NCBI GenBank assembly: GCA_040403495.1
Contig: JBBAKM010000005.1
Span: forward strand, 23,677 to 87,676
DNA: 64,000 bases
Source: Bacteroidia bacterium
Lineage (GTDB): Bacteria; Bacteroidota; Bacteroidia; NS11-12g; UBA955
Reading direction: 5' to 3'
In this document: positions 1-38,333 of the stretch, in pieces
How positions within the stretch are numbered: position 1 is the stretch's first letter
Layout: each line of letters opens with the position of its first letter
The notes under the pieces: generated by a model
What the model saw: only the letters and a program-made list of their open reading frames with translations
Told to the model about the DNA's origin: nothing
Databases searched by the model: none
Program-made: the position numbers and the translations under genes

Positions 1-1452
1 AATACCAAAATTAATGAATGGGAAGAGTTAACTTTTGATTTTACGGGTAAAGTTAATCCACCATCATTAAAAGGTCTTTTAAATCAAATCATTATTTTCC
101 CTGATTTCAATACTTCAGGAAGAACAGCTGATAATATTTGTTACATTGACAATATTACTTTCAATGCAGGAACAGCATCTGAACCAACATCGGCAGCCCC
201 GAGTCCTTCACAACCTTCTGCTGATGTAATCTCAATGTTTAGTAATGCTTATTCTAATAAATCAGTAAATACATGGAGAACTGATTGGTCAGCAGCGACT
301 CTTACTGATGTTCAAATCGCTGGAAATGATACCAAAAAATATACTTCTTTGGATTTTGTTGGAATAGAAACCGTAGGGGCTAATTTGCTAGATGTTAAAG
401 ACATGTTATACTTCCATGTTGATGTTTGGACTCCCAATGCAAACACTTTTAGTGTAAAATTAGTTGATATTGGAGCAGATGGTAATTTTGGTGGAGGTGA
501 TGATAAAGAACATCAAGTTACTTTAACTCCTACAAAAAACGGTTGGAATAGTTTTGATATTCCTATGTCTGATTTTGCAGGATTAACCTCTAAAGAACAT
601 ATTGCGCAATTAATTTTTAGTTGTACTCCTGCCGGTCAAGGAACTTTATATTTGGACAATATTTTTTACCACAAATCGCCAATTATCGACCCTAATACTC
701 CTCAAGAAGCTGCACCAACTCCAGCATTTGCAGGAACAGATGTGATTTCATTGTTTAGTAATGCTTACACCAATAAAACGGTTAATACTTGGCGCACAGA
801 TTGGTCTCAAGCAACTTTAACTGATTTGCAAATCAAAGGTAACGATACTAAAAAATACAGCTCTTTAGATTTCGTTGGAATTGAAACTGTTGGTGCAAAT
901 GTTATTGATGCCTCAAATATGGATAGATTTTATTTCAATGCTTGGACGCCAAATTTAACTTCATTTAAAGTGAAACTAGTTGACTTTGGTGCTGATGGTG
1001 CTTTTGCAGGTGGTGATGATAAAGAACATGAACTTACATTGACTGCCCCAACCTTAAGCAGTTGGAATACTTACGACTTGCCTTTGTCTAGTTTTACTGG
1101 ATTAACAACCAAAGCACACATTGCCCAATTGATATTAGTAGGAACTCCTACAGGTGCAGGTACTGTATTTATTGACAACGTATTGTTTAGAAAAGAAGCA
1201 CTTTCTGTTTCTAATGCTACTTTGAATACTATTAATGTGTATCCAAACCCAGCAACTGAACAAGTTACTTTGTCCTCAACTAATACTATTGCTTCTGTTG
1301 AATTATTCAATAGCTTAGGTCAAAAAGTGTTAAACTTAAATTCTGATTCAAATACCGTGACTATCGATATAGCGAATCTTAACAAAGGTATTTATACAAT
1401 AAAAACAAACACCGACAATGGACAATCTGTTTCTAAACTGATTGTAGAGTAG
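1..1452 (+). CDS. Secreted glycan-binding-type protein, 5'-truncated at the window edge. It has tandem CBM-like repeats and a T9SS C-terminal sorting domain.
   Basis: Frame 1 is open from nt 1, so the start lies outside the window. There are two tandem ~152-aa repeats and the tail of a third. The C-terminus VYPNPATEQVTL...LNKGIYTIKT fits the T9SS type-A CTD pattern. Confidence 0.7.
   Translation, partial: NTKINEWEELTFDFTGKVNPPSLKGLLNQIIIFPDFNTSGRTADNICYIDNITFNAGTASEPTSAAPSPSQPSADVISMFSNAYSNKSVNTWRTDWSAATLTDVQIAGNDTKKYTSLDFVGIETVGANLLDVKDMLYFHVDVWTPNANTFSVKLVDIGADGNFGGGDDKEHQVTLTPTKNGWNSFDIPMSDFAGLTSKEHIAQLIFSCTPAGQGTLYLDNIFYHKSPIIDPNTPQEAAPTPAFAGTDVISLFSNAYTNKTVNTWRTDWSQATLTDLQIKGNDTKKYSSLDFVGIETVGANVIDASNMDRFYFNAWTPNLTSFKVKLVDFGADGAFAGGDDKEHELTLTAPTLSSWNTYDLPLSSFTGLTTKAHIAQLILVGTPTGAGTVFIDNVLFRKEALSVSNATLNTINVYPNPATEQVTLSSTNTIASVELFNSLGQKVLNLNSDSNTVTIDIANLNKGIYTIKTNTDNGQSVSKLIVE
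223..1194 (+). repeat. Intragenic tandem duplication of a ~152-aa CBM-like module (nt 223-675 and 739-1194)
   Basis: The units share DVISxFSNAYxNKxVNTWRTDWSxATLTD, KKYxSLDFVGIETVGAN, VKLVDxGADGxFxGGDDKEH and AHIAQLI. A third, diverged copy lies at nt 8776-9243 in another gene. Confidence 0.85.
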
Positions 1453-1558: not shown

Positions 1559-4500
1559 TTATTCTTTGTTGCCGTTGCTTTCGAAATTAATCAAAAACTC
1601 AAATAAATCTTGGTGAGTCTCTAATTTTAATTTTTTCCTTAAACGGTACCTGCTTATTTCAACTCCTCTAACAGATATGCTAAACAGTTGGGCCATTTCT
1701 TTGCTCGATAAATTCATTCTTAAGTAGGCACAAAGCTTTAATTCTTTGGAGTTTAAATCAGGATATGCCTTTTTTAAATTATTTAAAAAATCACTTTGTA
1801 CGTTTTTTACATGATCTGTAAACTTATCCCATTCCTCATCTAATTTTTCGTCCGATTTTATTTGACGTAATATTTTTCTAATTTCACTCGCCTCCACTTG
1901 GTCTTTGTTCTGTAAAACTAGATTATTTAAATGACTCGTTAGCTTTCCTAAAAAAGCTTTCTTCTGAAGTAAATTCATAGCAGTACTTGCCAAGTCCTCA
2001 CTTTTGTGCTTTATCTCAGCTTGAAGATTGTCATTGGTTAATTGCATTATCGCTTTTTCGTTCTTTTCTAGCTCAAGCTGATGTTTATAGTTGATTTGTC
2101 GTTGCTCTTCCTCAAATTTAAGTTTAGCCTCCTGCATCCTAATTTGTGCTTTTTTCTGTAGTTTTTTCTTCTGTAATTTAAGTAATGTATAAAACACAGA
2201 GACTGTGATTAATAGATAAAGCAAATAAGCCCATATATTTCTATACCAAGGGGCTTTAATTTCAAAACTGTATGAGAATTGCTTAAACTCGTTGGATGGT
2301 CCATGTCTAGATTTTAAGTAAAATGTGTATTTCCCCTCTTTAAGATTTGTATAGTCTTTTTCAGGGGTTGAACTCCAATTGCTCCATTTTTTATCATGAC
2401 CTTCCAATAGGTAACTAAATTCAATGTGTGATTTGTGTCTCAAAAATGAGCTTGCAAATGAAAACCGGATTGAATTTAATTTATAAGGAATTGAAGTTTT
2501 TAAATTGCTGTCTTTTAGGAGATTATTGAATCCTCCGTATAGGATAGAATCGCCACTTCCGAAGGTTTTTACTGAACTAATATAAGTTTCATAAGGGAAT
2601 ATTTGCTTCGAGTACTTGTTGTAATTGATGTTGTAAAAACCAATGTCTGAGCCTATTATAGTATTTTCGGAATCGTAGCTGTAAATATTTTCAAAACCAC
2701 TTAACACATGATTGAATAATTCAGGTATGTATTTTACAACAGCTTGTGTTCCTTTAAAGTCCACTATGCCCAACATTTTGTCTTGGACAAACCAAATATT
2801 GCCATTCAAGTCTTCTTTTAAATACCTTATTGGGATGTTGCCTAATATACTTTGATAGTATTTAGACGGTATGATTTTGTTGCTTTTTGGGTCTATTTCA
2901 TAAATGCCTTTAGTCGTAGCAATTACAATTTTGTTTTTTATTTTAAAAACATGATTGTCTAATTCTGAAGGTAATCCATCTTTTAATGAGTATTTTTTAG
3001 TGCTATTGTCTGTTATATTGATTTTATATAAACCATGATAAGGGTGTGATACCCAAATGGAATTATTTTCTACCTCCATATAACGACTTGATTCAATGAA
3101 GTTTCTGATAGAACCATCGTTTTTGAGTTCGCCCTTCTCTTTGCTAAAAAGTTGAATGCCAAAATAATTTCCGCATGCTATTTTAGGAGGATTGCTCCCA
3201 CTAATTGGCTTGAAGGTCCAAAAGCCTAAAGATTTGAAAACAGGGCTTGCTTTGTCGTTATCAACTTTCCATAATCCATCATCTCTGCTCACAATTAGTT
3301 GATTGTCATAAGTATTGACATTCCAAGTTAAGCCATTCATTATAATTTTAGGTTTCAATGAAAGTGAACCTAATTCGTTTTTTTGTCTAATATCTATAGA
3401 TTGTAACCCCGTTGACAATGCAAAATATAAATCGCCATTTAAACTGATAGCGCCATGCCCACTGCCGTTGTTAAATGAGTTGGGATTTATATGGTAAATG
3501 GAATTTCCCCAATCAATAAGTGCAATGCTGTTGTCCATACCTATCCAAGTGCATCCATCAAAACCACTGTAAAGGCAACGGATTGTATTGCTTACTAATC
3601 CTTGTTTGGAAGAAGTATTTCCCAGGATGTTCCCTTTATTATCTATTTTGTAAAGTCCTGAATTATAGGAGCCTAATAAAAAGTGATTGCCATTAAGGAC
3701 CTCAATAGTTGTAAAGTGGTCTTCGTTTATCAAGCCATTGATTTTAAATGGGAGTATCTGATTTTGGGTTAATAAGAACAGACCATTGCCGGTGGTACTC
3801 ACCAAGCTAGTGTCTTTCCCAAAGGGTTTAATATCAGTGATTTGAAATCCGTTAGGCAACAAACTTTGATTAATCAGAGGTTCCCATCTGCCATTGTTGT
3901 AGAGTAGTATCCCGCTTTTCTTGTCTTGAGTTATGAGTTTATTGTGGTGTTTTTTTAGCGAAGTCCATGTTGTTTTCGGTTTAAAATAAGAGATACTATT
4001 GTTAGAATATCTGAAAATAAACTGAGGTGTCATGAAAAAAACATCTTGGTCAATTATTTCGATATTCCAGATATCGGCAAATGAGCTAACAGAGGGAGGG
4101 AGCTGTTTTTTTAAAGAGGTAAAAATGAATTTCCCTGTTTTGTCAGGTTTAAAATAGCCAAATTCGTCTTGTGCACCCACATATAATCGACCATCATTGC
4201 TCATGGCAATAGATCTTACAATGGTTTTGTTAGGCACTGGATGTAATTCCCATTTTACACCATTGTATATCAAAAGCCCTTCGTTGTTGGCAATAAATAA
4301 TCTGCCCATATTGTCTCTCTCAATATCCCAGTTTTGTGTGCCAGCGGAATATTCGGATTTTGTGAAAATAGAAACTTTTGCATTGTAAAGTTCCCCTTGT
4401 CCAAAACTATTGAAAGTGAAAAGTAAAAGATACAAACCCAAAAGTAACCCTTTTTGAGAGTTGCATTTTTCTTTGCTTTTGTTACGGTCTTGTATTGTTT

Positions 4501-4576
4501 TTCTTATGTTAATAATGCAAAAATAACCAAATTTTTCAGTTTGATGTAGTAGTGTAGTAGTTTTTGTTGGTTGCAA
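1559..4576 (-). CDS. Transmembrane one-component glycan sensor/regulator with a periplasmic beta-propeller region, Y_Y_Y-type domain, TM helix, coiled coil and LuxR/GerE HTH
   Basis: It has an N-terminal hydrophobic segment, long propeller-like repeats and a Y_Y_Y-like FSYLLEGHDKKWSNWS. The TM helix is IWAYLLYLLITVSVFYTLL. The C-terminal HTH is LSSKEMAQLFSISVRGVEISRYRLRKKL. No His-kinase or receiver motifs were seen. The start is TTG and uncertain. Confidence 0.75.
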   Translation of the reverse strand: MQPTKTTTLLHQTEKFGYFCIINIRKTIQDRNKSKEKCNSQKGLLLGLYLLLFTFNSFGQGELYNAKVSIFTKSEYSAGTQNWDIERDNMGRLFIANNEGLLIYNGVKWELHPVPNKTIVRSIAMSNDGRLYVGAQDEFGYFKPDKTGKFIFTSLKKQLPPSVSSFADIWNIEIIDQDVFFMTPQFIFRYSNNSISYFKPKTTWTSLKKHHNKLITQDKKSGILLYNNGRWEPLINQSLLPNGFQITDIKPFGKDTSLVSTTGNGLFLLTQNQILPFKINGLINEDHFTTIEVLNGNHFLLGSYNSGLYKIDNKGNILGNTSSKQGLVSNTIRCLYSGFDGCTWIGMDNSIALIDWGNSIYHINPNSFNNGSGHGAISLNGDLYFALSTGLQSIDIRQKNELGSLSLKPKIIMNGLTWNVNTYDNQLIVSRDDGLWKVDNDKASPVFKSLGFWTFKPISGSNPPKIACGNYFGIQLFSKEKGELKNDGSIRNFIESSRYMEVENNSIWVSHPYHGLYKINITDNSTKKYSLKDGLPSELDNHVFKIKNKIVIATTKGIYEIDPKSNKIIPSKYYQSILGNIPIRYLKEDLNGNIWFVQDKMLGIVDFKGTQAVVKYIPELFNHVLSGFENIYSYDSENTIIGSDIGFYNINYNKYSKQIFPYETYISSVKTFGSGDSILYGGFNNLLKDSNLKTSIPYKLNSIRFSFASSFLRHKSHIEFSYLLEGHDKKWSNWSSTPEKDYTNLKEGKYTFYLKSRHGPSNEFKQFSYSFEIKAPWYRNIWAYLLYLLITVSVFYTLLKLQKKKLQKKAQIRMQEAKLKFEEEQRQINYKHQLELEKNEKAIMQLTNDNLQAEIKHKSEDLASTAMNLLQKKAFLGKLTSHLNNLVLQNKDQVEASEIRKILRQIKSDEKLDEEWDKFTDHVKNVQSDFLNNLKKAYPDLNSKELKLCAYLRMNLSSKEMAQLFSISVRGVEISRYRLRKKLKLETHQDLFEFLINFESNGNKE

Positions 4577-4663: not shown

Positions 4664-7600
4664 ATGCCCAATAAGAATATAGAAATGATTAAAAAAGTGC
4701 TAATCCAATTTTTTTTGTTGTTAGCCCCATTGTTAGTATTTGCACAAAGCGAAAAAGTTGAAGTCATTAAGTCGCAAAATGGATTTAAACTTTCAGTCAA
4801 TGGAAAAGACTTGTTCATTAATGGAATGAATTGGGATTATTTTCCTGTAGGGACAAATTACAATTACAGTTTGTGGAATCAGTCGGATGATTTGATTAAA
4901 GCAGCTTTGGACAATGAAATGTCCTATTTGAAAAACATGGGCGTTAATGCCATTCGACAATATTCGGGTGTTCCTGCCAAATGGGTGAAATACATTTATG
5001 AAAATTATGGAATTTACACCATGCTCAACCATTCTTTTGGTCGTTATGGTTTAAATATCAATGGAAATTGGGAAGCCAATACGGACTATTCCAATCCTGC
5101 TGTTAGAGAGGTTTTGTTGAAAGAAACCAAGGAAATGGTGTCGCAATACAAAGAAACGCCGGGTATTTTATTGTTTTTGTTAGGGAATGAAAACAATTAT
5201 GGTCTCTTTTGGAGAGGTGCCGAAACAGAAAATATCCCATTTGCGGATAGAAAATCGACAAAAGATGCTTACTTTATGTATAAGCTTTTTAATGATGCAG
5301 TTAAAGAATTAAAATCAATTGACAAAAATCATCCTATGGCCATTTGTAATGGTGATTTATTGTTTTCTGACATTATTGCAAAAGAGTGTACTGATGTCGA
5401 TATTTTAGGAATAAATTGTTATAGAGGTCTTACTTTTACTGACCTGTATGAGCGCGTAAAAAATGAGTTAAATGTGCCAGTCATTCTTACTGAGTTTGGT
5501 GCTGATGCATACAATACTCGTTCAAATAATGAAGACCAAGAGTTTCAAGCTCAAGTTCTATTGAGTAATTGGAAGGAAATATACGGCAATGCTGCTGGAA
5601 TGGGAAAAAATAACAATAGTTTGGGTGGTTTTACTTTCCAATTCAGTGATGGGTGGTGGAAAACCGGTCAAACCATCAATTTGGATGAACACGATGTTAC
5701 AGCTTCTTGGTCGAACGGTGGGTATGGTAACGATTATGTTCAAGGTGAAAATAATATGAATGAGGAGTGGTTTGGCATTTGTGCAAAAGGCAAAACCAAT
5801 GAACGTGGTTTGTATGAGTTATATCCAAGGGCTGCTTATTATGCGCTTCAAAATATACACAAATTCAATCCTTATGTAGGTAATTCTAATTCAATAAATG
5901 TTTATTTTAATTCTATATCAATTGTGGATGCAGCCTTAAAGGCAAGAGGAGACAAAGCCGTTTTAGAATCCAAAGACAAAGGGAAGTTGTATCTAAGTAA
6001 TTTACAAGCCAATTTTAATACTTATCAAACGGGAGGAAGTTTAATAACAACACCTACCACCTCCAATCCTTTAAATGCCAATTCATTTCCCAATGTTCAA
6101 GGTTTTGACCACATGCAATCTTTCAATGTTGGCATTACAGCAAGGCCTGCTCCTAATATGAAAGCAAACGTTCAGTTTAATGTTTTAGGCAATGTAGCTA
6201 CCAATCCCATAGATGAAATATTCTATGAAAACAGAGGAAGACCTCTAACCGTACAAACCCCTACTGGGCCTCAGCAGATTAACTCAAATAACAGGGTACA
6301 ATTGTATAAAGCTGATTACAGTTGGGATGCTAAGGATTTTAAACTAACCGGGTTTTATAGAACAGGACATTACCATTGGGGATATGAAGGTGATTTTTTT
6401 GGATTATATCCCGAGGCTAATTATGGTCCTAACATAGATATATACAATGGGAATGCTCCTTTTGGTTTTGAAATTGAAGGCAAAAAAACTATTAAAGGAT
6501 TAAAGTTGGCTTTTGGTCCTGAATTATGGTGGGGAGCCAATCCAGCTTTCTTGTTAAAATACAGTCGAAAAATAGCAGGCTTAGATGTTACCGGTATTTT
6601 TCATGAGGATATTACTCAAAGAAATAATCTGCAAAGTTCATTTGCAGTTCCTGTGCCAAAAACCAGAAGATTAACTTTGGCAATAGGGAAGAAAATGAAT
6701 CATTTTACCTTTGATTTGGGTGGAATTTGGGGCGGACAGCCGCTTAATGGAAGAACATTTCAAATGGTTTCTGAAAATGTAGTCTACGAAGATAAAATTC
6801 AAAGTACAGATAATTTTGGAGGTAAAGCAAAGCTAACCTATTCCAAAGGAGCTATTCGTTGGTATGGTCTAGCATCATACATGGGTTTAGTGGCTAACGG
6901 AGGGGTAGACCAAACCAAAACATTTACCGGTTGGGTTCTTAAGGATGTAGGAAGTGGAAATATGTACAATGCACTTACTGGTCTGACATACAATATTGGT
7001 AAAATTCAAATTGCACCCAATTTCTTATTCCAAAAACCATTAGTAGGTCCCATTGGCCCAAGATATATGGCACCCGCTCGCCCAAGAAATATTTTAGACG
7101 ATCCTTTTTCAGTGAGAGGAAATAGAGAAACTGTGGGTGGTGAAATGTTGATTACGTATGATCCAACGCCTGCAACTTGGATGTATGAGTGGGATAATGA
7201 CAGAATGGAAGATGCCAAATTTGCTTTTAGTTCAGGATTTGTTTACAGGCATTTACCAACAGTTCAAGATGCTTCTATAGGTATTTTAGGAAATGGTCGT
7301 ACCACTTTTGTATTTCCGGGTTCAGCACCAGCGCAGGATCTTTGGGAACTAAACGCTAGAGTTGTTTCTAAAATTAATCCCGAATTTGGAATGATTGGAA
7401 ATCTGTATTTTGGAAATGGTCAAGCCAATGGAAATGATACCAGAACAATCAATAGATATGGCATGGATATTAGAACCATTTATAAAAAAATGAAATTAAT
7501 TACCATTGTTAAAATAGATGATTGGGGCCCTTTTGACTATCACCGAGATTTTAACCAAACTTTCCCGCTTCAACTGATAGGAGATTGGTCAATAGAAGTT

Positions 7601-7807
7601 GGCAAGCCAGATTGGTTCATGCTGCCAGGAACGAAAATAGGGTTCAGAACAACATACAGGACTTTAAATAAATACTCCAACAGATATTCACCGATTACAA
7701 CTTTAAATAATCTAGGTCAATTTGTTCCTGATCCCAATGCACTTGGTTTTCCGAATGGTAACGAATGGGAGCTAAGAACCTACATTCAAATCAATATTAA
7801 TAATTAA
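4664..7807 (+). CDS. Secreted clan GH-A (TIM-barrel) glycosidase domain fused to a ~600-aa porin-like C-terminal region
   Basis: The SPI signal is LLVFAQ|SE. GVNAIRQY, LLGNENNY (acid/base NE) and ILTEFGADAY (nucleophile E ~100 aa later) give a clan GH-A signature (GH2/GH5/GH158-like). The C-terminal ~600 aa is Gly/Tyr/Asn-rich with alternating amphipathic strands. Confidence 0.6.
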   Translation: MPNKNIEMIKKVLIQFFLLLAPLLVFAQSEKVEVIKSQNGFKLSVNGKDLFINGMNWDYFPVGTNYNYSLWNQSDDLIKAALDNEMSYLKNMGVNAIRQYSGVPAKWVKYIYENYGIYTMLNHSFGRYGLNINGNWEANTDYSNPAVREVLLKETKEMVSQYKETPGILLFLLGNENNYGLFWRGAETENIPFADRKSTKDAYFMYKLFNDAVKELKSIDKNHPMAICNGDLLFSDIIAKECTDVDILGINCYRGLTFTDLYERVKNELNVPVILTEFGADAYNTRSNNEDQEFQAQVLLSNWKEIYGNAAGMGKNNNSLGGFTFQFSDGWWKTGQTINLDEHDVTASWSNGGYGNDYVQGENNMNEEWFGICAKGKTNERGLYELYPRAAYYALQNIHKFNPYVGNSNSINVYFNSISIVDAALKARGDKAVLESKDKGKLYLSNLQANFNTYQTGGSLITTPTTSNPLNANSFPNVQGFDHMQSFNVGITARPAPNMKANVQFNVLGNVATNPIDEIFYENRGRPLTVQTPTGPQQINSNNRVQLYKADYSWDAKDFKLTGFYRTGHYHWGYEGDFFGLYPEANYGPNIDIYNGNAPFGFEIEGKKTIKGLKLAFGPELWWGANPAFLLKYSRKIAGLDVTGIFHEDITQRNNLQSSFAVPVPKTRRLTLAIGKKMNHFTFDLGGIWGGQPLNGRTFQMVSENVVYEDKIQSTDNFGGKAKLTYSKGAIRWYGLASYMGLVANGGVDQTKTFTGWVLKDVGSGNMYNALTGLTYNIGKIQIAPNFLFQKPLVGPIGPRYMAPARPRNILDDPFSVRGNRETVGGEMLITYDPTPATWMYEWDNDRMEDAKFAFSSGFVYRHLPTVQDASIGILGNGRTTFVFPGSAPAQDLWELNARVVSKINPEFGMIGNLYFGNGQANGNDTRTINRYGMDIRTIYKKMKLITIVKIDDWGPFDYHRDFNQTFPLQLIGDWSIEVGKPDWFMLPGTKIGFRTTYRTLNKYSNRYSPITTLNNLGQFVPDPNALGFPNGNEWELRTYIQININN

Positions 7808-7839: not shown

Positions 7840-9246
7840 ATGAAAATGATAAATAAGTTAAGTGTTCAAATAGGTGTTATCGCCCTATTTTTAATAGTTC
7901 AATTGGGGTGTAAACGCGAATTGTCGGAGGATGCTGTACTGCCTCAATTTAGCAACAATCCCTATGTTTTTACCGATAATTTTATAGGGTTGGGTTCTGA
8001 TTTTTATTTCCCATTTGCCGATGCTAAACCAGATGTTTTTTCGGTTGACTTAAAAGAGGGTTTCGAAAGCAATGCTTCTGTTAGAATTGATGTGCCCAAT
8101 GAGACAGATCCCGGAGGAGCTTATGCAGGGGCAATTTTTAGGATAGATGGTGCCGGTAGAAATTTGACGACTTATGATGCACTAACCTTTTATGTGAAAG
8201 CCTCTACTGGAACAAAATTAGGTGATGTCGGTTTTGGAATTGATTATTTGCAAGATAAAAACCAAGTGACTATCCAAAATGTAAACGTGGGTACCAATTG
8301 GTCTAAAGTTATTATTCCGATTCCCGACCCTTCTAAATTGGTAAATGAAAGAGGTGTTTTTTGGTTTGCGGCAGGGACTCAGGAAACGAATGGCGCTGGA
8401 TATGTTCTGTGGTTTGACGAAATTAAATTTGAAAAATTAGGCACTGTGGGTAAACCAACTTCTAGGATTTTAAATGGAGAAGTGAACTCAGTAAAGTCAT
8501 TTGTGGGTGCGACAATAACAGTTTCTGGTTTAAGTCATGTTTTTAATCTTACCAATGGTCAAGATGTTACAGTGATTTCTAAGCCTTCTTATTATAAATT
8601 TACAAGTTCTAATCCCTCAGTCGCGACTGTTAATGATTCAGGAATTGTGAAAATATTAGCCACCGGAATTGCTGAAATAACAGCCAAGGTAAATGGGGTT
8701 TTAGCAAAAGGTAAATTGATAGTTGAGTCTAAAGGGAATTTGCCAGGCGCCCCAACACCGAACAGGCCAGCAATTGATGTTAAATCAATTTTTAGTGATG
8801 CTTATGTCAATGCCACTGAGAGTAACTTCACACCTGGTTTTGGCGGTTCTACGACAATTTTTGACCTATTAACAACCAGTAGTGGTAAGGTAGTACAATA
8901 CAGTAATAATAATTATACAGGAATAATTTTTGGAAATACAGTCGATGCTTCTGCGCTTGGTTTTTTACATATCGATGCTTATGTAGAGAATGCCTCATCA
9001 GTAATAGGAATTCAAATAAGAGACATAGGGGCAAACAAAACCATTGAAACCGATGTGTTTACAGGGAATCCAATAGGGGATGACAGGGATAAAAGAATGA
9101 ATTTGACTGGATTCGAAGCAGGTGTGTGGAAATCGTTTGATATACCATTGAATGCAGGAATTCTGAATCAAAAAAGTAATTTGGGTGCTATCATAATTAC
9201 AGGAGGTCCCAATTTTATGTTAGACAATATCTATTTCTATAAATAA
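7840..9246 (+). CDS. Surface glycan-binding-protein-like lipoprotein (beta-sandwich domain, Big_2-like Ig domain, CBM-like module)
   Basis: The lipobox is LIVQLGC. The Ig-like segment is ATVNDSGIVKILATGIAEITAKVNG. The C-terminal 156 aa (nt 8776-9243) is homologous to the repeats at 223-1194 (DVKSIFSDAY...WKSFDIPL...LDNIYFYK). Confidence 0.6.
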   Translation: MKMINKLSVQIGVIALFLIVQLGCKRELSEDAVLPQFSNNPYVFTDNFIGLGSDFYFPFADAKPDVFSVDLKEGFESNASVRIDVPNETDPGGAYAGAIFRIDGAGRNLTTYDALTFYVKASTGTKLGDVGFGIDYLQDKNQVTIQNVNVGTNWSKVIIPIPDPSKLVNERGVFWFAAGTQETNGAGYVLWFDEIKFEKLGTVGKPTSRILNGEVNSVKSFVGATITVSGLSHVFNLTNGQDVTVISKPSYYKFTSSNPSVATVNDSGIVKILATGIAEITAKVNGVLAKGKLIVESKGNLPGAPTPNRPAIDVKSIFSDAYVNATESNFTPGFGGSTTIFDLLTTSSGKVVQYSNNNYTGIIFGNTVDASALGFLHIDAYVENASSVIGIQIRDIGANKTIETDVFTGNPIGDDRDKRMNLTGFEAGVWKSFDIPLNAGILNQKSNLGAIIITGGPNFMLDNIYFYK

Positions 9247-9281: not shown

Positions 9282-10097
9282 ATGAATAAATCGAATAAAT
9301 TAACACTTTTGGCAATTATAGCAATTTCCGTGGGGGGATGTAAGGTAGAACCTATTCAAAACTTACCTGATAGGAAGTATGAATTGGTTTGGAGTGATGA
9401 GTTTGAAGGGGATTCTGGCGTTAATCCTAATGCTTTAAAATGGACCTATGATATTGGCACAGGACAAAATGGGTGGGGAAATAATGAACTTCAATCTTAT
9501 ACCAACAATCCCCAAAATGTATCTATAGATGGTACAGGGAATTTGGTTATTTCGGCTTTGAAAAGTAGTTCAGGAAACTACACTTCGGCAAGGATTAAAA
9601 CAGAAGGTCTTTTTGCCCATCAGTTTGGAAGAATTGAAGCCCGTATTAAAACACCAACTGGTTCAGGAATATGGCCTGCATTTTGGATGTTAGGAGCCGA
9701 TTTTAAGGATGTTGGCTGGCCTCAGTGTGGAGAAATTGATATTATGGAACAAAAAGGCAAATTCTCTAACATTACTTATGGTTCAATTCACGGCCCCGGA
9801 TATTCTGGTGGTCAAGCCATTACTACGCCATACGGACTGAAAGATAATAGGTTTGATGCCGATTTTAATGTTTATGCGGTTGAATGGGGCGCAAATTATA
9901 TTGATTTTTTTGTCAATAATTACCTTTACAAAAGAGTAACTCCCTCCGATGTTACAGGTGAGTGGGTGTTTAATAAACCTTTTTTTATTATCCTGAATAT
10001 TGCGGTTGGTGGAAATTTTGTTGGTCCTCCCAATATCAATACTCCTTTCCCAAGTTCTATGTATATCGATTATGTTAAAGTTTACAAAGAAATATAG
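9282..10097 (+). CDS. GH16 endo-beta-1,3-glucanase (laminarinase) lipoprotein
   Basis: The lipobox is SVGGC. It carries WSDEFEG, NGWGNNELQSYT, WPAFWMLG and the catalytic ExDxxE motif as GEIDIMEQ. Confidence 0.9.
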   Translation: MNKSNKLTLLAIIAISVGGCKVEPIQNLPDRKYELVWSDEFEGDSGVNPNALKWTYDIGTGQNGWGNNELQSYTNNPQNVSIDGTGNLVISALKSSSGNYTSARIKTEGLFAHQFGRIEARIKTPTGSGIWPAFWMLGADFKDVGWPQCGEIDIMEQKGKFSNITYGSIHGPGYSGGQAITTPYGLKDNRFDADFNVYAVEWGANYIDFFVNNYLYKRVTPSDVTGEWVFNKPFFIILNIAVGGNFVGPPNINTPFPSSMYIDYVKVYKEI

Positions 10098-10236: not shown

Positions 10237-13200
10237 ATGTCAGGTCAAAAACAAAATAAAGAAGCTACTTTAGTAGAGATAAAAAGATTGAAAATTGAAG
10301 GAGAGAACTTCTTTTGTATTTCAAATTATGATGAAATGCGTCCCTTTTTTATGAGTGTGGTAAGCGATTCGCACCATTGGATGTTTATTTCAAGCAATGG
10401 CGGAATTTCTGCCGGTCGCAAGAATGCTGAATATGCTTTGTTTCCCTATTATACTGCGGATAAAATTACGGAATCTTATGATATAACAGGCTCTAAATCC
10501 ATTTTCCAAATTATTCAAAATGAAAAAATCCATGTTTGGGAACCTTTTTCTGAGAGGAATAATAGCTTGTTCAATGTTTCTAGAAATCTGTATAAAAATG
10601 CCATTGGGAATAAAATTATTTTCGAAGAAATTAATCACACTTTTGAACTTACATTCAGGTATGAATGGAACTCAAGTGATCAATATGGTTTTGTTCGTAA
10701 GTCTTCATTAACAAACAATGGCAATCAAGCCTTAACGGTTGCTATATTAGATGGTATACAAAATATTATGCCTGACGGTGTCGGTGCTGATTTGCAAAAC
10801 TCAACCAGTATTTTAGTAGATGCATACAAACGCAATGAACTTGACATTGAATCGGGTATGGGAATTTATGCACTCAGTGCTATAATCGTTGATAAGGCGG
10901 AACCAAGCGAAGCGCTCAAAGCAAATATTGCTTGGTCTATTGGTATAGATAAACCCAAATACTTGCTTTCTTCTCTCCAACTTAATGCGTTCAGAAGAGG
11001 GGAGGATGTTGTTCAAGAAGAGGATGTTAAGGCAGAAAAAGGGGCTTACTTTATTAACCAAAAAATAACCTTAACCGCTGGCGAAAAGAAATCATGGTTA
11101 ATCGTTGCCGATGTGAACCAAAGTCAAGCAAATGTAGTCGCATTAACGAATGAAATTATCTCAAATAAGGAACTCAAAAAGCAAATTGAAAGTGATATAG
11201 AAATAGGGTCTAAACGTTTGAAGGAACTAAATGCATCTTCAGACGGCATTCAATTGTCTGATGATGTTTACAGAGATACTCGACATTTTTCCAATACTCT
11301 TTTTAACATAATGAGAGGGGGTATTTTTGATTTTAATTATCAAATAGAAAAAAAAGACCTTGTCAGTTATCTGGCAAATGCCAATAAAGAAGTTTATGAA
11401 ACTCACAAGGATTTGTTGCAAAGTTTGGATGATGTTTTTAACGTTTTTCAATTGCAAGACATATACAGCTCCATTAATGACAATAACTTCAAACGACTTT
11501 GTATAGAGTATTTGCCACTCAAGTTTAGCAGAAGGCATGGAGATCCAAGCAGACCTTGGAATAAATTTTCTATCAATACTCGCAACGCGGATGACCATTC
11601 TAAGGTGTTGGATTACGAGGGGAATTGGAGAGATATTTTTCAGAATTGGGAAGCTTTGTCCATCTCTTATCCTGCATTTACCAAAGGCATGATTCATAAG
11701 TTCTTGAACGCTACAACTTTCGAAGGCTATAATCCTTACAGGGTTACAAAGAGTGGATTTGATTGGGAAACGGTAGAGCCAGATAATCCTTGGTCGTATA
11801 TCGGTTATTGGGGTGATCATCAGATTATCTATTTACTCAAATTGTTGGAAATGAATGAGAAATACTATCCAGGTCAATTGAGTAGCGAATTCAGTGAAAA
11901 CTTATTTGTTTATGCCAATGTCCCCTATAAAATTAAAAATTATCAGGCGATTTTAAGAAATGCGAAAGATACAATTGAATTTGACAAAAAGTTGGATGAG
12001 GAGATTAGAGAAAATCGTGATTTAATTGGTTCAGATGCTGCTTTGCTTTTTGCGCAAAATGATAAAATCTATAATGTCAATTTTATTGAAAAAATATTGG
12101 CAACAATTTTATCTAAACTTTCCAATTTTATTCCCGAAGGCGGTATTTGGATGAATACCCAAAGACCAGAATGGAACGATGCCAATAATGCTTTGGTTGG
12201 AAATGGAGTTTCTATGGTAACATTGTATTACCTCAGAAGGTTCCTTGAATTCTTCGAAAAACTAATTGAACAAACAACTGAAGAACGTATAGAATTGTCG
12301 AATGAGTTAATCATTTTCTTTAAAAAAATTCATGCCACATTCGAAGACAACTTAGCTTTGTTAAATTCAGGAATAAACGACAGTCAACGTAAAGCAATTC
12401 TTGATAGCTTAGGACAAGCAGGAAGCGATTACCGTGAACATATCTATAAACATACTTTTTGGGGCGAAAAAAGAACTATTTCATACCGAAGACTTAAAAG
12501 TTTTGTTAAGGTAAGTCTTCAGTTTATTGAACATACTATTAAGGCCAATAAGCGTGAGGATAACATGTATCACTCCTACAATTTAATGACCCTGAAGAGC
12601 GAAAATGAAATTTCAATCACCTATTTAAGTGAAATGCTTGAAGGTCAAGTAGCCGTTTTAAGCTCCGGTTATTTGTCTCCTGAAAGTGCCCTTAAATTAT
12701 TGGATAGTATGAAAAATAGTGCCCTATTTAGAGAAGATCAATACAGCTATTTGCTCTATCCTAATAAGCAACTTCCAAAGTTTTTAGATAAAAATAGAAT
12801 TCCTAGTGAATTAGTTAAACAATCTCAGCTTCTTTCACTCATGCTTAATGACGGAAATAAATCAATTATAGAACAAGATTTAAAAGGGGAATGTCGATTT
12901 AATGGGAATTTTAAAAATTCAAATGACCTGAGTAATGCTATTGATTTGTTAAGCCATTCTAAATATGCTTCATTTATTCAAAGTGAAAAGAAGCTACTCT
13001 TAGAAATTTTTGAATCTGTATTTAATCACAAGTCATTTACTGGTCGCTCAGGTACTTTTTATGGATACGAAGGTTTAGGTTCTATTTATTGGCACATGGT
13101 TTCTAAGTTGCAATTAGCAGTCCAAGAAATGTGTATTCAAGCAATAGAAGTGCAAGAGAGTCCTGAACTTGTAGGGGGATTGTTGAAGCATTACTACGAA

Positions 13201-13689
13201 ATAAATGAAGGTGTTGGCGTGCATAAATCGCCCTCCGTTTATGGGGCATTCCCAACCGACCCCTATTCGCATACTCCAAGTAATAAAGGGGCACAACAGC
13301 CCGGAATGACTGGTCAAGTAAAAGAAGATATTCTGAGTCGATTTGGGGAATTAGGCGTTTTTGTCTCTAAAGGGTGTTTGTATTTTAACCCTTGCTTGTT
13401 GCGAAAAAATGAATTTATAACTCAAAATCGACAATTTCATTACGTAACTGTTGACATGGAACACAAAACATTAATGCCTGAAATTGGATCCTTGTGTTTT
13501 ACGTTTTGCCAAATTCCTATTGTTTATAGATTGTCAAATGATAATTATCTTGAAATTGAAAAAAGAGATGGCACTGTTTTAAGGAATAATTCATTGTGCT
13601 TAAATGAAGAAATAAGTCAGCAAATATTTAAAAGAACGGGTACAGTTTCTAAAATTACAGTTTATATCAATGGGTCTATTCTGAAGTAA
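10237..13689 (+). CDS. Large cytoplasmic protein, candidate GH149/GH94-type beta-1,3-glucan (laminaribiose/oligosaccharide) phosphorylase
   Basis: It is 1150 aa with no signal peptide, embedded among laminarin GH genes next to a sugar symporter. RPEWNDANNAL resembles the (D/E)WND acid-catalyst loop that I recall from GH94-type (alpha/alpha)6 phosphorylases. The size matches my recollection of bacterial GH149 enzymes. This is not verified. Confidence 0.45.
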   Translation: MSGQKQNKEATLVEIKRLKIEGENFFCISNYDEMRPFFMSVVSDSHHWMFISSNGGISAGRKNAEYALFPYYTADKITESYDITGSKSIFQIIQNEKIHVWEPFSERNNSLFNVSRNLYKNAIGNKIIFEEINHTFELTFRYEWNSSDQYGFVRKSSLTNNGNQALTVAILDGIQNIMPDGVGADLQNSTSILVDAYKRNELDIESGMGIYALSAIIVDKAEPSEALKANIAWSIGIDKPKYLLSSLQLNAFRRGEDVVQEEDVKAEKGAYFINQKITLTAGEKKSWLIVADVNQSQANVVALTNEIISNKELKKQIESDIEIGSKRLKELNASSDGIQLSDDVYRDTRHFSNTLFNIMRGGIFDFNYQIEKKDLVSYLANANKEVYETHKDLLQSLDDVFNVFQLQDIYSSINDNNFKRLCIEYLPLKFSRRHGDPSRPWNKFSINTRNADDHSKVLDYEGNWRDIFQNWEALSISYPAFTKGMIHKFLNATTFEGYNPYRVTKSGFDWETVEPDNPWSYIGYWGDHQIIYLLKLLEMNEKYYPGQLSSEFSENLFVYANVPYKIKNYQAILRNAKDTIEFDKKLDEEIRENRDLIGSDAALLFAQNDKIYNVNFIEKILATILSKLSNFIPEGGIWMNTQRPEWNDANNALVGNGVSMVTLYYLRRFLEFFEKLIEQTTEERIELSNELIIFFKKIHATFEDNLALLNSGINDSQRKAILDSLGQAGSDYREHIYKHTFWGEKRTISYRRLKSFVKVSLQFIEHTIKANKREDNMYHSYNLMTLKSENEISITYLSEMLEGQVAVLSSGYLSPESALKLLDSMKNSALFREDQYSYLLYPNKQLPKFLDKNRIPSELVKQSQLLSLMLNDGNKSIIEQDLKGECRFNGNFKNSNDLSNAIDLLSHSKYASFIQSEKKLLLEIFESVFNHKSFTGRSGTFYGYEGLGSIYWHMVSKLQLAVQEMCIQAIEVQESPELVGGLLKHYYEINEGVGVHKSPSVYGAFPTDPYSHTPSNKGAQQPGMTGQVKEDILSRFGELGVFVSKGCLYFNPCLLRKNEFITQNRQFHYVTVDMEHKTLMPEIGSLCFTFCQIPIVYRLSNDNYLEIEKRDGTVLRNNSLCLNEEISQQIFKRTGTVSKITVYINGSILK

Positions 13690-13693
13690 TAGG

Positions 13694-14974
13694 ATGTTTA
13701 ATTTCAGTCAATTATATCGTCTTTTGTGCATACTTTCGCTTGTTCTAATTGCCTGTAATAATAACAATTCAGTAAAAGGGAATATTTGGAATAAACCCCT
13801 TAGTAAAACTGCTTTTCAGATTTTAGGCGATACGAATTACCAAGCAATTTGCTATGGTGGGTATAGAAAAAACACCCGAGATTCACAGACTACTTTATCT
13901 CAAATAACAGAGGATATGCGGATTTTGAATGCAATGGGAGTTAAATTGCTGCGAACCTATAACACCCATTACAAGGAAATAGAAACGATATTGCAGGCTA
14001 TCTCTCAGTTGCGTTCGGAAAATTCGAATTTTGAAATGTATGTGATGCTAGGAGTTTGGATTGAATGTGAAAATGCATGGACACAAAAAGAACCTAATCA
14101 TGACAAGGAAAATGAGAAAGCTAATGCCGCAGAGATAAAAAAAGCAGTAGAATTGGCCAAACAATATCCTGACATAGTTAAAATAATAGCGGTTGGAAAT
14201 GAAGCAATGGTAAAGTGGGCAACTAATTACTATGTTCAACCAAGTGTGATTTATAAATGGGTGAATTATCTTCAATTGTTGAAGAAAAAAAATCAATTAG
14301 ACAGGGATTTATGGATTACATCTTCAGATAATTTCGCGTCATGGGGTGGCGGCGATTCTTCATATCATGTCGATGATTTAAAAAAACTTTATCAGGCCGT
14401 TGATTTTATTTCTATTCATACTTATCCAATGCATGACACCTATTATAATCCTAGTTTCTGGGGAACATTGCCAAAAGAAAATCATTTGACAAAAGAAGTT
14501 CAAATAGATTCTATGATGAAAAGAACATTGAATTATGCCAAAAGGCAATATCTTGGAGTTTATAAGTATATGAAATCCATTGGCGTAAACAAACCAATAC
14601 ATATAGGAGAAACGGGTTGGTCAACCAATTCTAATGATCTATATGGAAGCAATGGTACAAAGGCATGTGATGAATACAAATCGGCTAAATATTATCAACT
14701 TATTCGTGAATGGACCAATAAAGAAAAAATGACTTGTTTTTATTTTGAAGCATTTGATGAAAATTGGAAAGATGCTAATAATACTGCTGGTTCCGAAAAT
14801 CATTTTGGGTTATTTACGGTCAATGGAAATGCCAAATATGCACTTTGGAATATGGTAGATAAAGGTGTTTTTAAGGGTTTAACAAGAGATGGAAACTTAA
14901 TTGAAAAAACATACAAAGGGAATAAAGAAGCATTGATGGAAATAGTAGAACTTCCCGCCAAATTAAAACAATAA
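13694..14974 (+). CDS. GH17 beta-1,3-glucanase/transglycosylase lipoprotein
   Basis: The lipobox is LVLIAC. It carries AVGNEAMV (acid/base), IHIGETGWST (nucleophile), YFEAFDENWK and ENHFGLF. Confidence 0.85.
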   Translation: MFNFSQLYRLLCILSLVLIACNNNNSVKGNIWNKPLSKTAFQILGDTNYQAICYGGYRKNTRDSQTTLSQITEDMRILNAMGVKLLRTYNTHYKEIETILQAISQLRSENSNFEMYVMLGVWIECENAWTQKEPNHDKENEKANAAEIKKAVELAKQYPDIVKIIAVGNEAMVKWATNYYVQPSVIYKWVNYLQLLKKKNQLDRDLWITSSDNFASWGGGDSSYHVDDLKKLYQAVDFISIHTYPMHDTYYNPSFWGTLPKENHLTKEVQIDSMMKRTLNYAKRQYLGVYKYMKSIGVNKPIHIGETGWSTNSNDLYGSNGTKACDEYKSAKYYQLIREWTNKEKMTCFYFEAFDENWKDANNTAGSENHFGLFTVNGNAKYALWNMVDKGVFKGLTRDGNLIEKTYKGNKEALMEIVELPAKLKQ

Positions 14975-14977
14975 TAA

Positions 14978-16486
14978 ATGAATATTTTGCCAAACATATC
15001 ATACTATAACAAGTTTTTGCTTGTCATTGCTTGTATGGCTTTTGTTCAGTGCACAAATGATAATATGAAAATTGAAGTTTATGAAACCTCCAAAAGCGGA
15101 AATGCACTAACTCTGGTTTCTGATTTTAAAACAGCTGAAAAAGTAGTAAATATGTCAATTGACACAGAGGTGACCTTCCAAACTATTGTTGGCTTTGGCG
15201 GTTCATTTACCGAAGCCTCAGCCTCACTGCTCAATCAATTAAGTAAAGAAAAAAGAGAAGAATTATTACAAGCCTATTTTGGGGATAATGGTGCTAAATA
15301 TTCGTTAAGCAGAACACACATGGCATCCTGCGATTTTTCAAATTCTAATTACACTTATGCCAAACTTGAAAACGATTTGGATTTGAAAGGTTTTACAATT
15401 GAAGATGATGTTGATGATTTAATCCCAATGATATTGGAGGCTAAAAAAATATCGAAAGAAGGGTTTAAAATTATTGCTTCACCATGGACTGCACCACCTT
15501 GGATGAAAGACAATAATCACTATGTGGGAGGGAAATTATTACCTCAATATTACGATGTGTTTGCCTTGTATTTCTCTAAGTACTTGGAGGCTTATAAAGG
15601 GAAAGGAATTGATATTTGGGGGCTTACGGCTATTAATGAACCCCATGGGAATGGAAGTAATTGGGAAAGCACCCATTTTACACCTAAAGAAATGACAGAT
15701 TTTGTTGAAAATCATTTGGGTCCCAAGCTTGAAAAAGACGGTTGGGGCGATGTTAAGGTTTTAGGTTATGACCAAAATAGAGCTGGAATAAAAGAATGGG
15801 TGGATGAGATGTTCAGAAGTGATAAATCTTCGAAATATTTTGCAGGAACAGCTTTCCATTGGTATGAGAGTACTTATGAGGTTTTTCCGGAAGCCTTGTC
15901 TTATGCGCACCATAAAGCCCCAAATAAATTACTGATAGAAACCGAAGGTTGTGTGGATTCAGAAGTACCCAAATGGCGCAATGACCAATGGTATTGGGAA
16001 ATGGAGGCAACGGATTGGGGTTGGGATTGGGCGAGTGAAAAAGACAAATACTTGCATCCTAAATATGCACCTGTCAACAGGTATGCCATAGATATTATAG
16101 GGTGTTTAAATAATTATGTGAATGGTTGGGTGGATTGGAATATGGTGTTAAACAAACAAGGTGGTCCCAATTGGTTTAAAAATTGGTGCGTTGCCCCCGT
16201 TATAGTTGATGCCGAAAAAGATGAAGTTTATTACACTCCCTTGTATTATGTAATGACACATTTTAGTAGATTTATGAGGCCCGGCGCTTTGAAAATTAAA
16301 TGTGATATTGATCAAAAGTATCTTCATGCAACTGCTGTAAAAAATCCGGATGGAACTATTGCTGTTGCTGTGTTTAATCCAATCTATGAGGCTGTTACTA
16401 TTAAATTAAAACTAAATAACAAATTCCAAACATGGACCATAAATCCCCATGCCATTCAAACAATACTTATAAATAATCATAAATAG
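14978..16486 (+). CDS. GH30 glycosidase (glucosylceramidase-like; beta-1,6-glucanase type in laminarin loci)
   Basis: It carries VGFGGSFTEASA, SPWTAPPWMK, GLTAINEPHG (acid/base) and LLIETEGC (nucleophile). The signal/lipobox is AFVQC. Confidence 0.85.
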   Translation: MNILPNISYYNKFLLVIACMAFVQCTNDNMKIEVYETSKSGNALTLVSDFKTAEKVVNMSIDTEVTFQTIVGFGGSFTEASASLLNQLSKEKREELLQAYFGDNGAKYSLSRTHMASCDFSNSNYTYAKLENDLDLKGFTIEDDVDDLIPMILEAKKISKEGFKIIASPWTAPPWMKDNNHYVGGKLLPQYYDVFALYFSKYLEAYKGKGIDIWGLTAINEPHGNGSNWESTHFTPKEMTDFVENHLGPKLEKDGWGDVKVLGYDQNRAGIKEWVDEMFRSDKSSKYFAGTAFHWYESTYEVFPEALSYAHHKAPNKLLIETEGCVDSEVPKWRNDQWYWEMEATDWGWDWASEKDKYLHPKYAPVNRYAIDIIGCLNNYVNGWVDWNMVLNKQGGPNWFKNWCVAPVIVDAEKDEVYYTPLYYVMTHFSRFMRPGALKIKCDIDQKYLHATAVKNPDGTIAVAVFNPIYEAVTIKLKLNNKFQTWTINPHAIQTILINNHK

Positions 16487-38326: not shown

Positions 38327-38333
38327 CTTTAAT

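Follow-up and report, generated by a model that had tools for sequence, protein, structure and literature searches.

In the 64-kb stretch of Bacteroidia DNA analysed here (the window), the open reading frame (ORF) at 4664..7807 on the forward strand encodes, from an ATG start, a secreted fusion protein of 1047 amino acids (aa), in which an N-terminal glycosidase domain resembling GH158 enzymes is followed by a C-terminal region of about 600 residues predicted to form a large outer-membrane (OM) beta-barrel. Structure models support the reading that this enzyme-barrel fusion is the entry route for glucan in a putative laminarin locus from which SusC is absent, and so does the comparative genomic context. 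A first-pass annotation of the window, made from the letters alone, had described the gene as a possible enzyme-channel fusion that couples depolymerisation at the cell surface to oligosaccharide entry. Our results agree with it on the barrel fold, the SusC-less locus and the channel, and do not extend to a surface location of the enzyme.

A protein search with the fusion returned more than 5,000 clusters at E<=0.001, and each of the 120 listed spans 90% or more of the query. An ORF with near-full-length homologues in so many clusters is not a chance ORF, and the observation from which this analysis started is confirmed. The homologues carry source names such as "glycosidase", "GH2 TIM barrel-domain protein", "beta-galactosidase" and "hypothetical protein". 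At least 588 reference genomes encode the fusion (588 of the 600 matches examined were confirmed, with one genome per species). The best 80 genome matches are almost all labelled as Bacteroidota or as Bacteroidota genera and include Chitinophagaceae, Flavobacterium, Chryseobacterium, Cloacibacterium, Saprospiraceae, Cytophagales and Bacteroidales; carriers comprise freshwater, soil and marine Bacteroidota as well as marine Gammaproteobacteria. Among the carriers in culture are Flavobacterium degerlachei, F. franklandianum, Chryseobacterium aquaticum, Cloacibacterium rupense and Foetidibacter luteolus. The N-terminus of the protein has the hydrophobic core of a type I signal peptide and lacks a lipobox cysteine, and equivalent signal peptides ending in QAQ are found in gammaproteobacterial homologues. 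The catalytic motifs named by the first-pass annotation lie where it had placed them (LLGNENNY at residues 172-179, ILTEFGADAY at residues 274-283), as do the C-terminal stretches that it had read as amphipathic: KANVQFNVLGNVA (500-512), FKLTGFYRTGHYHWGYEG (559-576), GLKLAFGPELWWGANPAFLLKY (612-633), AKLTYSKGAIRWYGLASYMGL (722-742) and WELRTYIQININ (1035-1046). Coordinates of the domains and of the neighbouring genes are collected in Table 1.

The N-terminal domain is probably a GH158-like retaining enzyme of clan GH-A, of the beta-1,3-glucanase type, as judged from its sequence and its predicted fold. We ran AlphaFold2 (AF2) on the full-length protein with 59 homologues at 74-99% identity. 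This model was poor as a whole (pLDDT 63, pTM 0.44; its Foldseek list held glycosidases only) and was used for the N-terminal domain and for secondary structure only, but it contains a clear alpha/beta barrel across residues ~30-400. When this model is compared with the PDB by Foldseek, the top five matches are GH158 structures (E 3e-12 to 9e-10), led by GH158(Pro) 9p26, 9oro and 9p25 (E ~3e-12) and including BuGH158 6pal (9e-10); GH2 glucuronidases and the GH72 beta-1,3-glucanosyltransferase Gas2p follow. At the sequence level, single-sequence phmmer against PDB sequences finds GH158(Pro) at 3.3e-4 with ~20% identity, and the family profile finds 9oro at 2.7e-6 and 6pal at 1.4e-5, with identity again about 20%. 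Pfam gives a partial Glyco_hydro_2_C match only (residues 79-286, 26.8 bits, profile positions 35-218 of 302). In GH158(Pro), Glu143 is the acid/base and Glu229 the nucleophile (PMC13195107); the corresponding residues of the fusion, E176 and E277, are invariant among the 59 aligned homologues. The Pfam match, the GH158 structures at the top of the Foldseek list and the invariant Glu pair bear out the original call of a TIM-barrel glycosidase.

The domain thus shares with BuGH158 of Bacteroides uniformis (6pal) and with GH158(Pro) (9oro/9p25) the clan GH-A (alpha/beta)8 fold, a catalytic Glu pair at the same alignment positions and a setting in beta-1,3-glucan utilisation loci. It differs from them in being only ~20% identical, in not being part of a lipoprotein, and in carrying a 600-residue membrane barrel where they carry an Ig-like domain. 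Such a domain stands behind the catalytic barrel in both solved GH158 structures (PMC13195107), whereas beyond residue ~400 of the fusion the AF2 models show two helices, then a linker and then the membrane barrel, with no Ig-like domain seen; the Ig-like domain is perhaps not a strict criterion of the GH158 family. GH158(Pro) has also been described as processive (PMC13195107), a property of that enzyme and not one shown for the domain of the fusion. We rejected the GH2 label: there is no match to Glyco_hydro_2_N or Glyco_hydro_2 beside the partial Glyco_hydro_2_C match, the beta-galactosidase models of NCBIfam reach 30.6 and 19.1 bits where 1284 and 999 are required, and the GH2 architecture of jelly-roll sugar-binding and Ig-like domains before the TIM barrel, with a full-length GH2 match, was not found.

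The C-terminal part is very probably an OM barrel. Residues 430-1047 alone match neither Pfam, even at E<=10, nor NCBIfam, and single-sequence and profile searches of PDB sequences with the protein recover only the glycosidase part, which leaves the barrel without a solved relative that sequence can detect. On these sequence comparisons it appears to be a new, previously undescribed family. In order to widen the alignment, we searched exhaustively with residues 430-1047 and obtained 483 cluster representatives, which include distant fusions of ~1000-1100 aa and stand-alone proteins of ~590 aa; a profile search added 120 relatives, mostly gammaproteobacterial and ~30% identical. A second AF2 run, on residues 430-1047 with a 133-sequence alignment spanning both phyla, gave pLDDT 81.4 and pTM 0.79, with 26 DSSP strands of 6-19 residues each arranged in consecutive hairpins. 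The strand count becomes 24 if the short hairpin at 698-711 is taken as a loop, and is even both ways. Foldseek of this model against the PDB returned 354 matches at E<=0.001, and the 50 top-listed ones are without exception transmembrane beta-barrels, nearly all of them natural OM proteins, with no sandwich domain among them. They include chitoporin 7vu2 (the best match, E 3.8e-9), MOMP, Occ porins, LptD and the FimD usher, as well as the TonB-dependent transporters PfeA, BtuB, OprC, ChuA and FepA. The proposal of a C-terminal barrel of ~600 aa has thus become a prediction of a large OM-type beta-barrel made with good confidence by AF2 and Foldseek. The OM-barrel fold class is clear from the models, yet no solved family is close.

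The family profile is consistent with this fold. Hydrophobic and polar faces alternate clearly in 16 of the 26 predicted strands, in line with the amphipathic stretches first noticed by eye, and the strands form a continuous up-and-down meander. Length-invariant turns of 2-3 residues occur solely at even-to-odd strand junctions and long connections at odd-to-even ones, a distribution typical of OM barrels, with their turns in the periplasm and their loops outside. Cysteine is absent from the domain. In 104 of 112 gammaproteobacterial members the last residue is Phe (as in YFKYSF), the classical C-terminal signal of OM proteins. Features generic to OM barrels that depend on the BAM machinery are therefore present, namely a signal peptide, an even number of amphipathic antiparallel strands, and short turns with long loops; as to the C-terminal aromatic residue, gammaproteobacterial members conform and Bacteroidota ends differ. 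The most conserved parts of the barrel are several of the long connections, rich in aromatic and acidic residues, with the signature loops FYRTGHYHWGYEGDFFGL (564-581), GPELWWGANP (618-627), DPFSVRGNRE (813-822) and TYDPTPATWMYEWDNDRMEDAKF (831-853); a stretch beginning GLVANGG is also conserved. These loops may line the lumen or narrow it, and may take part in sugar binding. Barrel closure, too, is suggested by the models, through the pTM of 0.79 and a match list that consists of barrels only. The linker that joins enzyme and barrel keeps its sequence in the family consensus.

The genomic neighborhood of the fusion is conserved. Downstream of the fusion gene, the 82 related loci carry a homologue of the lipoprotein in 77 cases (directly adjacent), GH16 in 75, GH149 in 62, GH30 in 49, GH17 in 48 and the major facilitator superfamily (MFS) symporter in 46. 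The genes are co-stranded, their order is mostly that of the window, and the intergenic gaps in the window measure 3-139 nt. A homologue of the divergent regulator occupies the same place in 37 of the 82 loci, and published laminarin loci of Muricauda are likewise headed by a LuxR gene (PMC13188888). A homologue of the CBM11-like protein, a cargo of the type IX secretion system (T9SS), is found in 67 of the 82, usually between lipoprotein and GH16. When the ten other largest ORFs in the 64 kb of the window were examined, no SusC-like gene came to light, in agreement with the first-pass remark that the locus lacks SusC. Within 10 kb of the fusion, a TonB-dependent SusC-like gene was seen in only 3 of the 82 loci, where a single cluster of such genes accounts for it, and in none of the other 79. 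Three gammaproteobacterial loci have the order GH16-MFS-GH30-fusion-lipoprotein-GH149-GH1-glucokinase-GH17, and there too the called genes include no TonB-dependent transporter.

By their signal peptides, the products of the locus are spread over all compartments: the 468-aa lipoprotein and GH16 probably at the surface, GH17 and GH30 in the periplasm, the MFS symporter in the inner membrane and GH149 in the cytoplasm. The set forms a complete pathway from outside to cytoplasm, with the fusion as the sole candidate for the OM step. The 468-aa lipoprotein has KRELSED after its lipobox, which resembles the surface-export signal of Bacteroidota, while the GH17 lipoprotein has no acidic residues following its Cys and probably faces the periplasm. 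A PDB sequence search with the 468-aa lipoprotein matched only its Big_2-like stretch, and Pfam gave no SusD-family or TPR-type match; it is a probable surface glycan-binding protein or lid. In the three gammaproteobacterial loci a lipoprotein gene of ~220 aa begins ~30 nt after the fusion (L083:13199-13855, L089:11177-11869 and L090:11188-11853, with lipoboxes LTASC, AVAAC and LAVGC, respectively). This protein and the 468-aa lipoprotein of Bacteroidota have no sequence similarity, and the pairing of barrel and adjacent lipoprotein thus recurs across phyla with different partners.

The barrel probably functions as a glycan channel, and the stand-alone members of the family argue for this. Four of them (P0184, P0199, P0266 and P0384) are proteins of 588-598 aa with their own signal peptides, a C-terminal Phe and few residues between signal peptide and strand 1. 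In three independent contigs the gene next to P0199 or P0384 encodes, each time, a family-5 solute-binding protein (SBP_bac_5), and further along the single long contig lie genes for an ABC permease and ATPase, a LacI regulator and a GH16. A stand-alone barrel beside a gene for a solute-binding protein (SBP) is an arrangement of the sugar-porin type, which is not explained by a role in anchoring or secretion.

On balance we favor the following mechanism, without placing great confidence in every step of it. Domain architecture, fold class, conserved catalytic residues, gene neighborhood and lack of SusC are results of the analysis, and from them we infer the channel function, the substrate, the side of the membrane on which the enzyme lies and the role of the lipoprotein. 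The Sec signal peptide would take the fusion protein to the periplasm, where the C-terminal 600 residues would insert into the OM as a barrel of 24-26 strands, with the GH158-like retaining beta-1,3-glucanase tethered to the first strand by a helical linker of ~35 residues. The barrel would provide a TonB-independent passage across the OM for laminarin or laminari-oligosaccharides, probably with the downstream lipoprotein as its partner in glycan capture or as a lid, and the polymer may be pre-cut by the GH16 lipoprotein at the surface. Placed on the periplasmic side, right at the channel opening, the glucanase would cleave each chain as it enters; this would keep the chain from diffusing back and could ratchet it inward. 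Products would then be trimmed by GH17 and GH30, imported by the MFS symporter and phosphorolysed by the cytoplasmic GH149. We regard as speculative, and rather unlikely in its full form, the stronger idea that fusion and lipoprotein make up a class of TonB-free polysaccharide importers in both phyla, in which a whole laminarin chain is pulled in by a hydrolysis-driven ratchet; if it were true, such a ratchet would be a way of coupling energy to glycan uptake distinct from that of SusCD.

Several points weigh against the proposed entry route. The fold matches of the barrel are generic (TM-scores 0.19-0.44, root-mean-square deviations 11-20 A), closure of the barrel and its precise number of strands are model-based, and the lumen may be either open or occupied by the long conserved loops. 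A plugless barrel of 24-26 strands would be leaky unless closed by loops or by the lipoprotein. Bacteroidota members lack the terminal aromatic residue, ending in QININN or QINIGK (window positions 7784-7804 and alignments), and may use a different C-terminal insertion signal. The first full-length model is silent on where the enzyme lies relative to the barrel, and we found no expression or localisation data for this exact protein. Finally, the characterised GH158 enzymes of gut Bacteroides are described as cell-surface glycosidases (PMC7157763).

Among the alternative explanations of the fusion, it is highly improbable that the C-terminal region consists of soluble beta-sandwich, CBM or Ig modules strung together behind an ordinary secreted glycosidase. 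Pfam and NCBIfam indeed attach no barrel label to the region, and its composition is not strikingly unlike that of the N-terminal half: of the enrichment claimed in the first-pass annotation only Gly stands out (10.4%), Tyr, Asn and Trp being no more frequent than in the N-terminal half. However, AF2 confidently predicts a single domain (pTM 0.79), the 50 best fold matches are all transmembrane barrels, the strands run as a continuous up-and-down meander with 2-residue turns, and gammaproteobacterial members end in Phe; the string of soluble modules that the first-pass annotation had set against its own proposal was looked for by AF2 and Foldseek and was not seen. It is also very unlikely, if less so, that the barrel is an anchor only, with a lumen filled by loops, the glucanase held at the OM and sugars entering by an unlinked porin or by SusCD encoded elsewhere. 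The lumen could be occupied by the long, highly conserved loops of fixed length at 566-599, 741-766 and 833-853, susCD is often present in marine variant-1 laminarin loci (PMC10108472), and the window covers only 64 kb of the genome. Against this explanation, enzyme-free stand-alone barrels are encoded directly upstream of an SBP gene, 24-26 strands are far beyond the needs of an anchor, and a TonB-dependent transporter is absent within 10 kb in 79 of the 82 loci.

The most serious alternative, which we nevertheless consider unlikely, is surface display: the glucanase would be threaded through the lumen, cut laminarin outside the cell and deliver its products to its own channel. An N-terminal enzyme followed by a C-terminal barrel is the order of type V autotransporters, in which strand 1 likewise has a periplasmic start and the linker spans the pore, so that the turn parity is compatible with display; the conserved helix 420-436 stands right before strand 1, and an additional N-terminal CBM4_9 domain in one relative (P0261) would suit action on polymer. 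The surface action of the characterised Bacteroides GH158 enzymes cited above points the same way. Several observations favor a periplasmic enzyme instead. The turn pattern makes the start of the barrel periplasmic, and so do the stand-alone proteins, which begin with strand 1 once the signal peptide is removed; by default, then, the enzyme would be periplasmic and lie where the channel opens inward. To our knowledge, all large barrels with N-terminal domains (LptD, BamA, ushers, TonB-dependent transporters, PgaA, BcsC) keep those domains periplasmic, and no autotransporter known to us has a barrel of more than 12-16 strands. Bacteroidota seldom have type V systems and rely on lipoprotein export or the T9SS for surface enzymes, and the locus already encodes a GH16 lipoprotein and a T9SS cargo protein. 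Stand-alone barrels that lack a passenger, moreover, indicate that the barrel has a function of its own. We therefore lean, by a modest degree, towards a periplasmic rather than a surface glucanase. Of the coupling between surface depolymerisation and entry proposed by the first-pass annotation, the channel half is strengthened by the stand-alone barrels upstream of SBP genes, while the surface half is unproven and corresponds to the less likely topology.

The architecture and the barrel family are new, but they belong within known kinds of systems, namely porins and polysaccharide utilisation loci (PULs). Like the sugar porins (ChiP, OprD/Occ, LamB/ScrY), the family places an OM barrel gene beside sugar-importer and glycosidase genes; chitoporin 7vu2 is the single best fold match, and the stand-alone members adjoin SBP and ABC genes as porins do. 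The barrel of the fusion differs from sugar porins in having 24-26 rather than 16-18 strands, in showing no sequence or Pfam relation and TM-scores of only 0.3-0.4 (at most 0.44), in being fused to an enzyme and in being paired with a lipoprotein. Membership in a known sugar porin family (LamB, OprD/Occ/ChiP) was rejected on the different strand number and on the lack of any Pfam match at E<=10 or PDB sequence match. In relation to SusC/SusD, the fusion takes the place of the barrel and lipoprotein gene pair in a PUL, and 22-strand TonB-dependent transporters give the highest query-normalised TM-scores (0.36-0.39). In contrast to SusC/SusD, the fusion has no Plug domain or TonB box and its partner lipoprotein no SusD-family match, so that transport would not be TonB-energised. 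Assignment to the TonB-dependent transporters was likewise rejected, since Plug, TonB_dep_Rec and CarboxypepD_reg give no match to the barrel part at E<=10 and the N-terminal domain is a glycosidase.

Autotransporters with enzyme passengers, such as the esterase EstA (type Va) and the patatin-like PlpD (type Vd), also join an N-terminal enzyme covalently to a C-terminal OM barrel. Their barrels of 12 or 16 strands serve secretion only, whereas the barrel of the fusion also occurs alone beside importer genes; a type V assignment was rejected on the strand number (24-26 against 12 in Va or 16 in Vd) and on the lack of an Autotransporter or POTRA Pfam match. The size class of 24-26 strands and a non-barrel domain at the N-terminus are shared with LptD-LptE, FimD/PapC and PgaA/BcsC. 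LptD-LptE resembles the fusion further in its adjacent lipoprotein partner, and PgaA/BcsC in that the likely cargo is a polysaccharide; LptD and FimD are among the fold matches with TM-scores of 0.24-0.28. The locus of the fusion differs from these in being catabolic, which suggests import and not export, and the fusion has no TPR or jellyroll domain.

Table 1. Features of the fusion gene and of the glucan locus around it (positions in the window)
Feature	Position	Strand	Evidence
T9SS-secreted protein, weak CBM11-like region	235..1452	+	Por_Secre_tail 2.7e-16
Divergent regulator, Reg_prop and Y_Y_Y repeats, LuxR-type C-terminal DNA-binding region	1559..4576	-	Pfam, NCBIfam
Type I signal peptide (residues 1-27)	4664..4744	+	Translation; predicted cleavage VFA/QS after residue 27
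GH158-like clan GH-A (alpha/beta)8 glycosidase domain (residues ~30-405), probable	4751..5878	+	AF2, Foldseek, profile, Pfam
Glu176 codon, predicted acid/base (LLGNENNY)	5189..5191	+	Aligns with GH158(Pro) GNE Glu
Glu277 codon, predicted nucleophile (ILTEFG)	5492..5494	+	Aligns with GH158(Pro) TEFG Glu
Linker (residues 406-440), helices predicted at 408-416 and 420-436	5879..5983	+	DSSP, full-length AF2 model
Predicted OM beta-barrel domain (residues 441-1047), 24-26 strands	5984..7804	+	AF2, Foldseek, strand/turn pattern, loop conservation
Putative partner lipoprotein, 468 aa, Big_2-like domain	7840..9246	+	Lipobox LGC; weak Big_2 match
GH16 endo-beta-1,3(4)-glucanase, lipoprotein (GGC/KVEP)	9282..10097	+	Pfam GH16 3.4e-20
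GH149 beta-1,3-glucan phosphorylase, no signal peptide (cytoplasmic)	10237..13689	+	NF058639, 1770.9 bits against a cut-off of 1150
GH17 beta-1,3-glucanase or transglycosylase, lipoprotein (IAC/NNNN)	13694..14974	+	Pfam GH17
GH30 beta-1,6-glucanase or glucosidase, secreted	14978..16486	+	Pfam GH30 1.2e-74
MFS/GPH sugar:cation symporter, inner membrane	16508..18070	+	Pfam MFS_2 3.7e-60, TIGR00792

Variants of the fusion and of its locus were also observed. The relative P0261 consists of an extra N-terminal CBM4_9 domain, the glycosidase and the barrel (1218 aa), and P0125 (1351 aa) has an N-terminal extension of ~350 residues. Two contigs labelled 'Rhizobium sp. Q54' (L007) and 'uncultured Burkholderiales' (L024) carry copies 80-82% identical to the fusion in full synteny of the Bacteroidota type, and are probably mis-binned. 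One locus (L001:21737-23135) encodes an MFS transporter fused to a GH17 domain in a protein of 782 aa, where the window has separate genes; a transporter-enzyme fusion of this type has been reported for Formosa Hel1_33_131. The 1005-aa regulator of the window has an apparent TTG start and a long leader before its hydrophobic segment, and its true start codon may lie downstream. The gene for the CBM11-like T9SS protein stands upstream of the regulator in the window, instead of at its usual place, and the listed ORF has no visible signal peptide. Three further genes with a Por_Secre_tail domain encode a protein of four fasciclin repeats (26051-28048, forward strand), an M1 peptidase (59308-61233, reverse strand) and a 903-aa protein with no other domain match (35660-38371, reverse strand); these T9SS cargo genes confirm that the Bacteroidota genome bears a T9SS. 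A cyanophycin synthetase with Cyanophycin_syn, ATP-grasp and Mur ligase domains (52096-54741, forward strand) is unrelated to the glucan locus.

In the literature that we searched we found no glycoside hydrolase fused to an OM barrel and no GH158 with a porin, in agreement with the first-pass annotation, which knew of no described fusion of this kind; coverage of the searches was incomplete and an earlier description elsewhere is possible. Genes at comparable positions have been reported purely as enzymes, namely as a "GH2 beta-glycosidase" in the laminarin locus of Muricauda lutaonensis (PMC13188888) and, in North Sea bloom studies of the "variant 1 laminarin PUL", as "GH0" or "GH158" (PMC10108472, PMC10877868), their homology to the fusion being unconfirmed, and some of the North Sea variant 1 laminarin PULs lack susCD (PMC10108472, PMC10877868). 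Taken together, papers on Formosa, Muricauda, Maribacter and North Sea blooms either list GH2, GH0 or GH158 genes of unconfirmed homology in such loci or make no mention of them.

Laminarin is among the largest fluxes of organic carbon in water, and its uptake by bacteria is at present ascribed to SusC/SusD, with expression of these transporters as the evidence for it. The fusion described here stands at the head of beta-1,3-glucan loci in which SusC is nearly always missing. If its barrel is the entry gate, many "CAZyme clusters" (clusters of carbohydrate-active enzymes) without SusCD would be complete uptake systems, and surveys that count susCD alone would miss part of laminarin use. A gene that is routinely labelled GH2, GH0, GH158 or beta-galactosidase would then be a transporter-enzyme fusion, representing a new family of OM proteins and the first glycoside hydrolase joined to a membrane barrel, and it would help in considering ways to couple hydrolysis to translocation.

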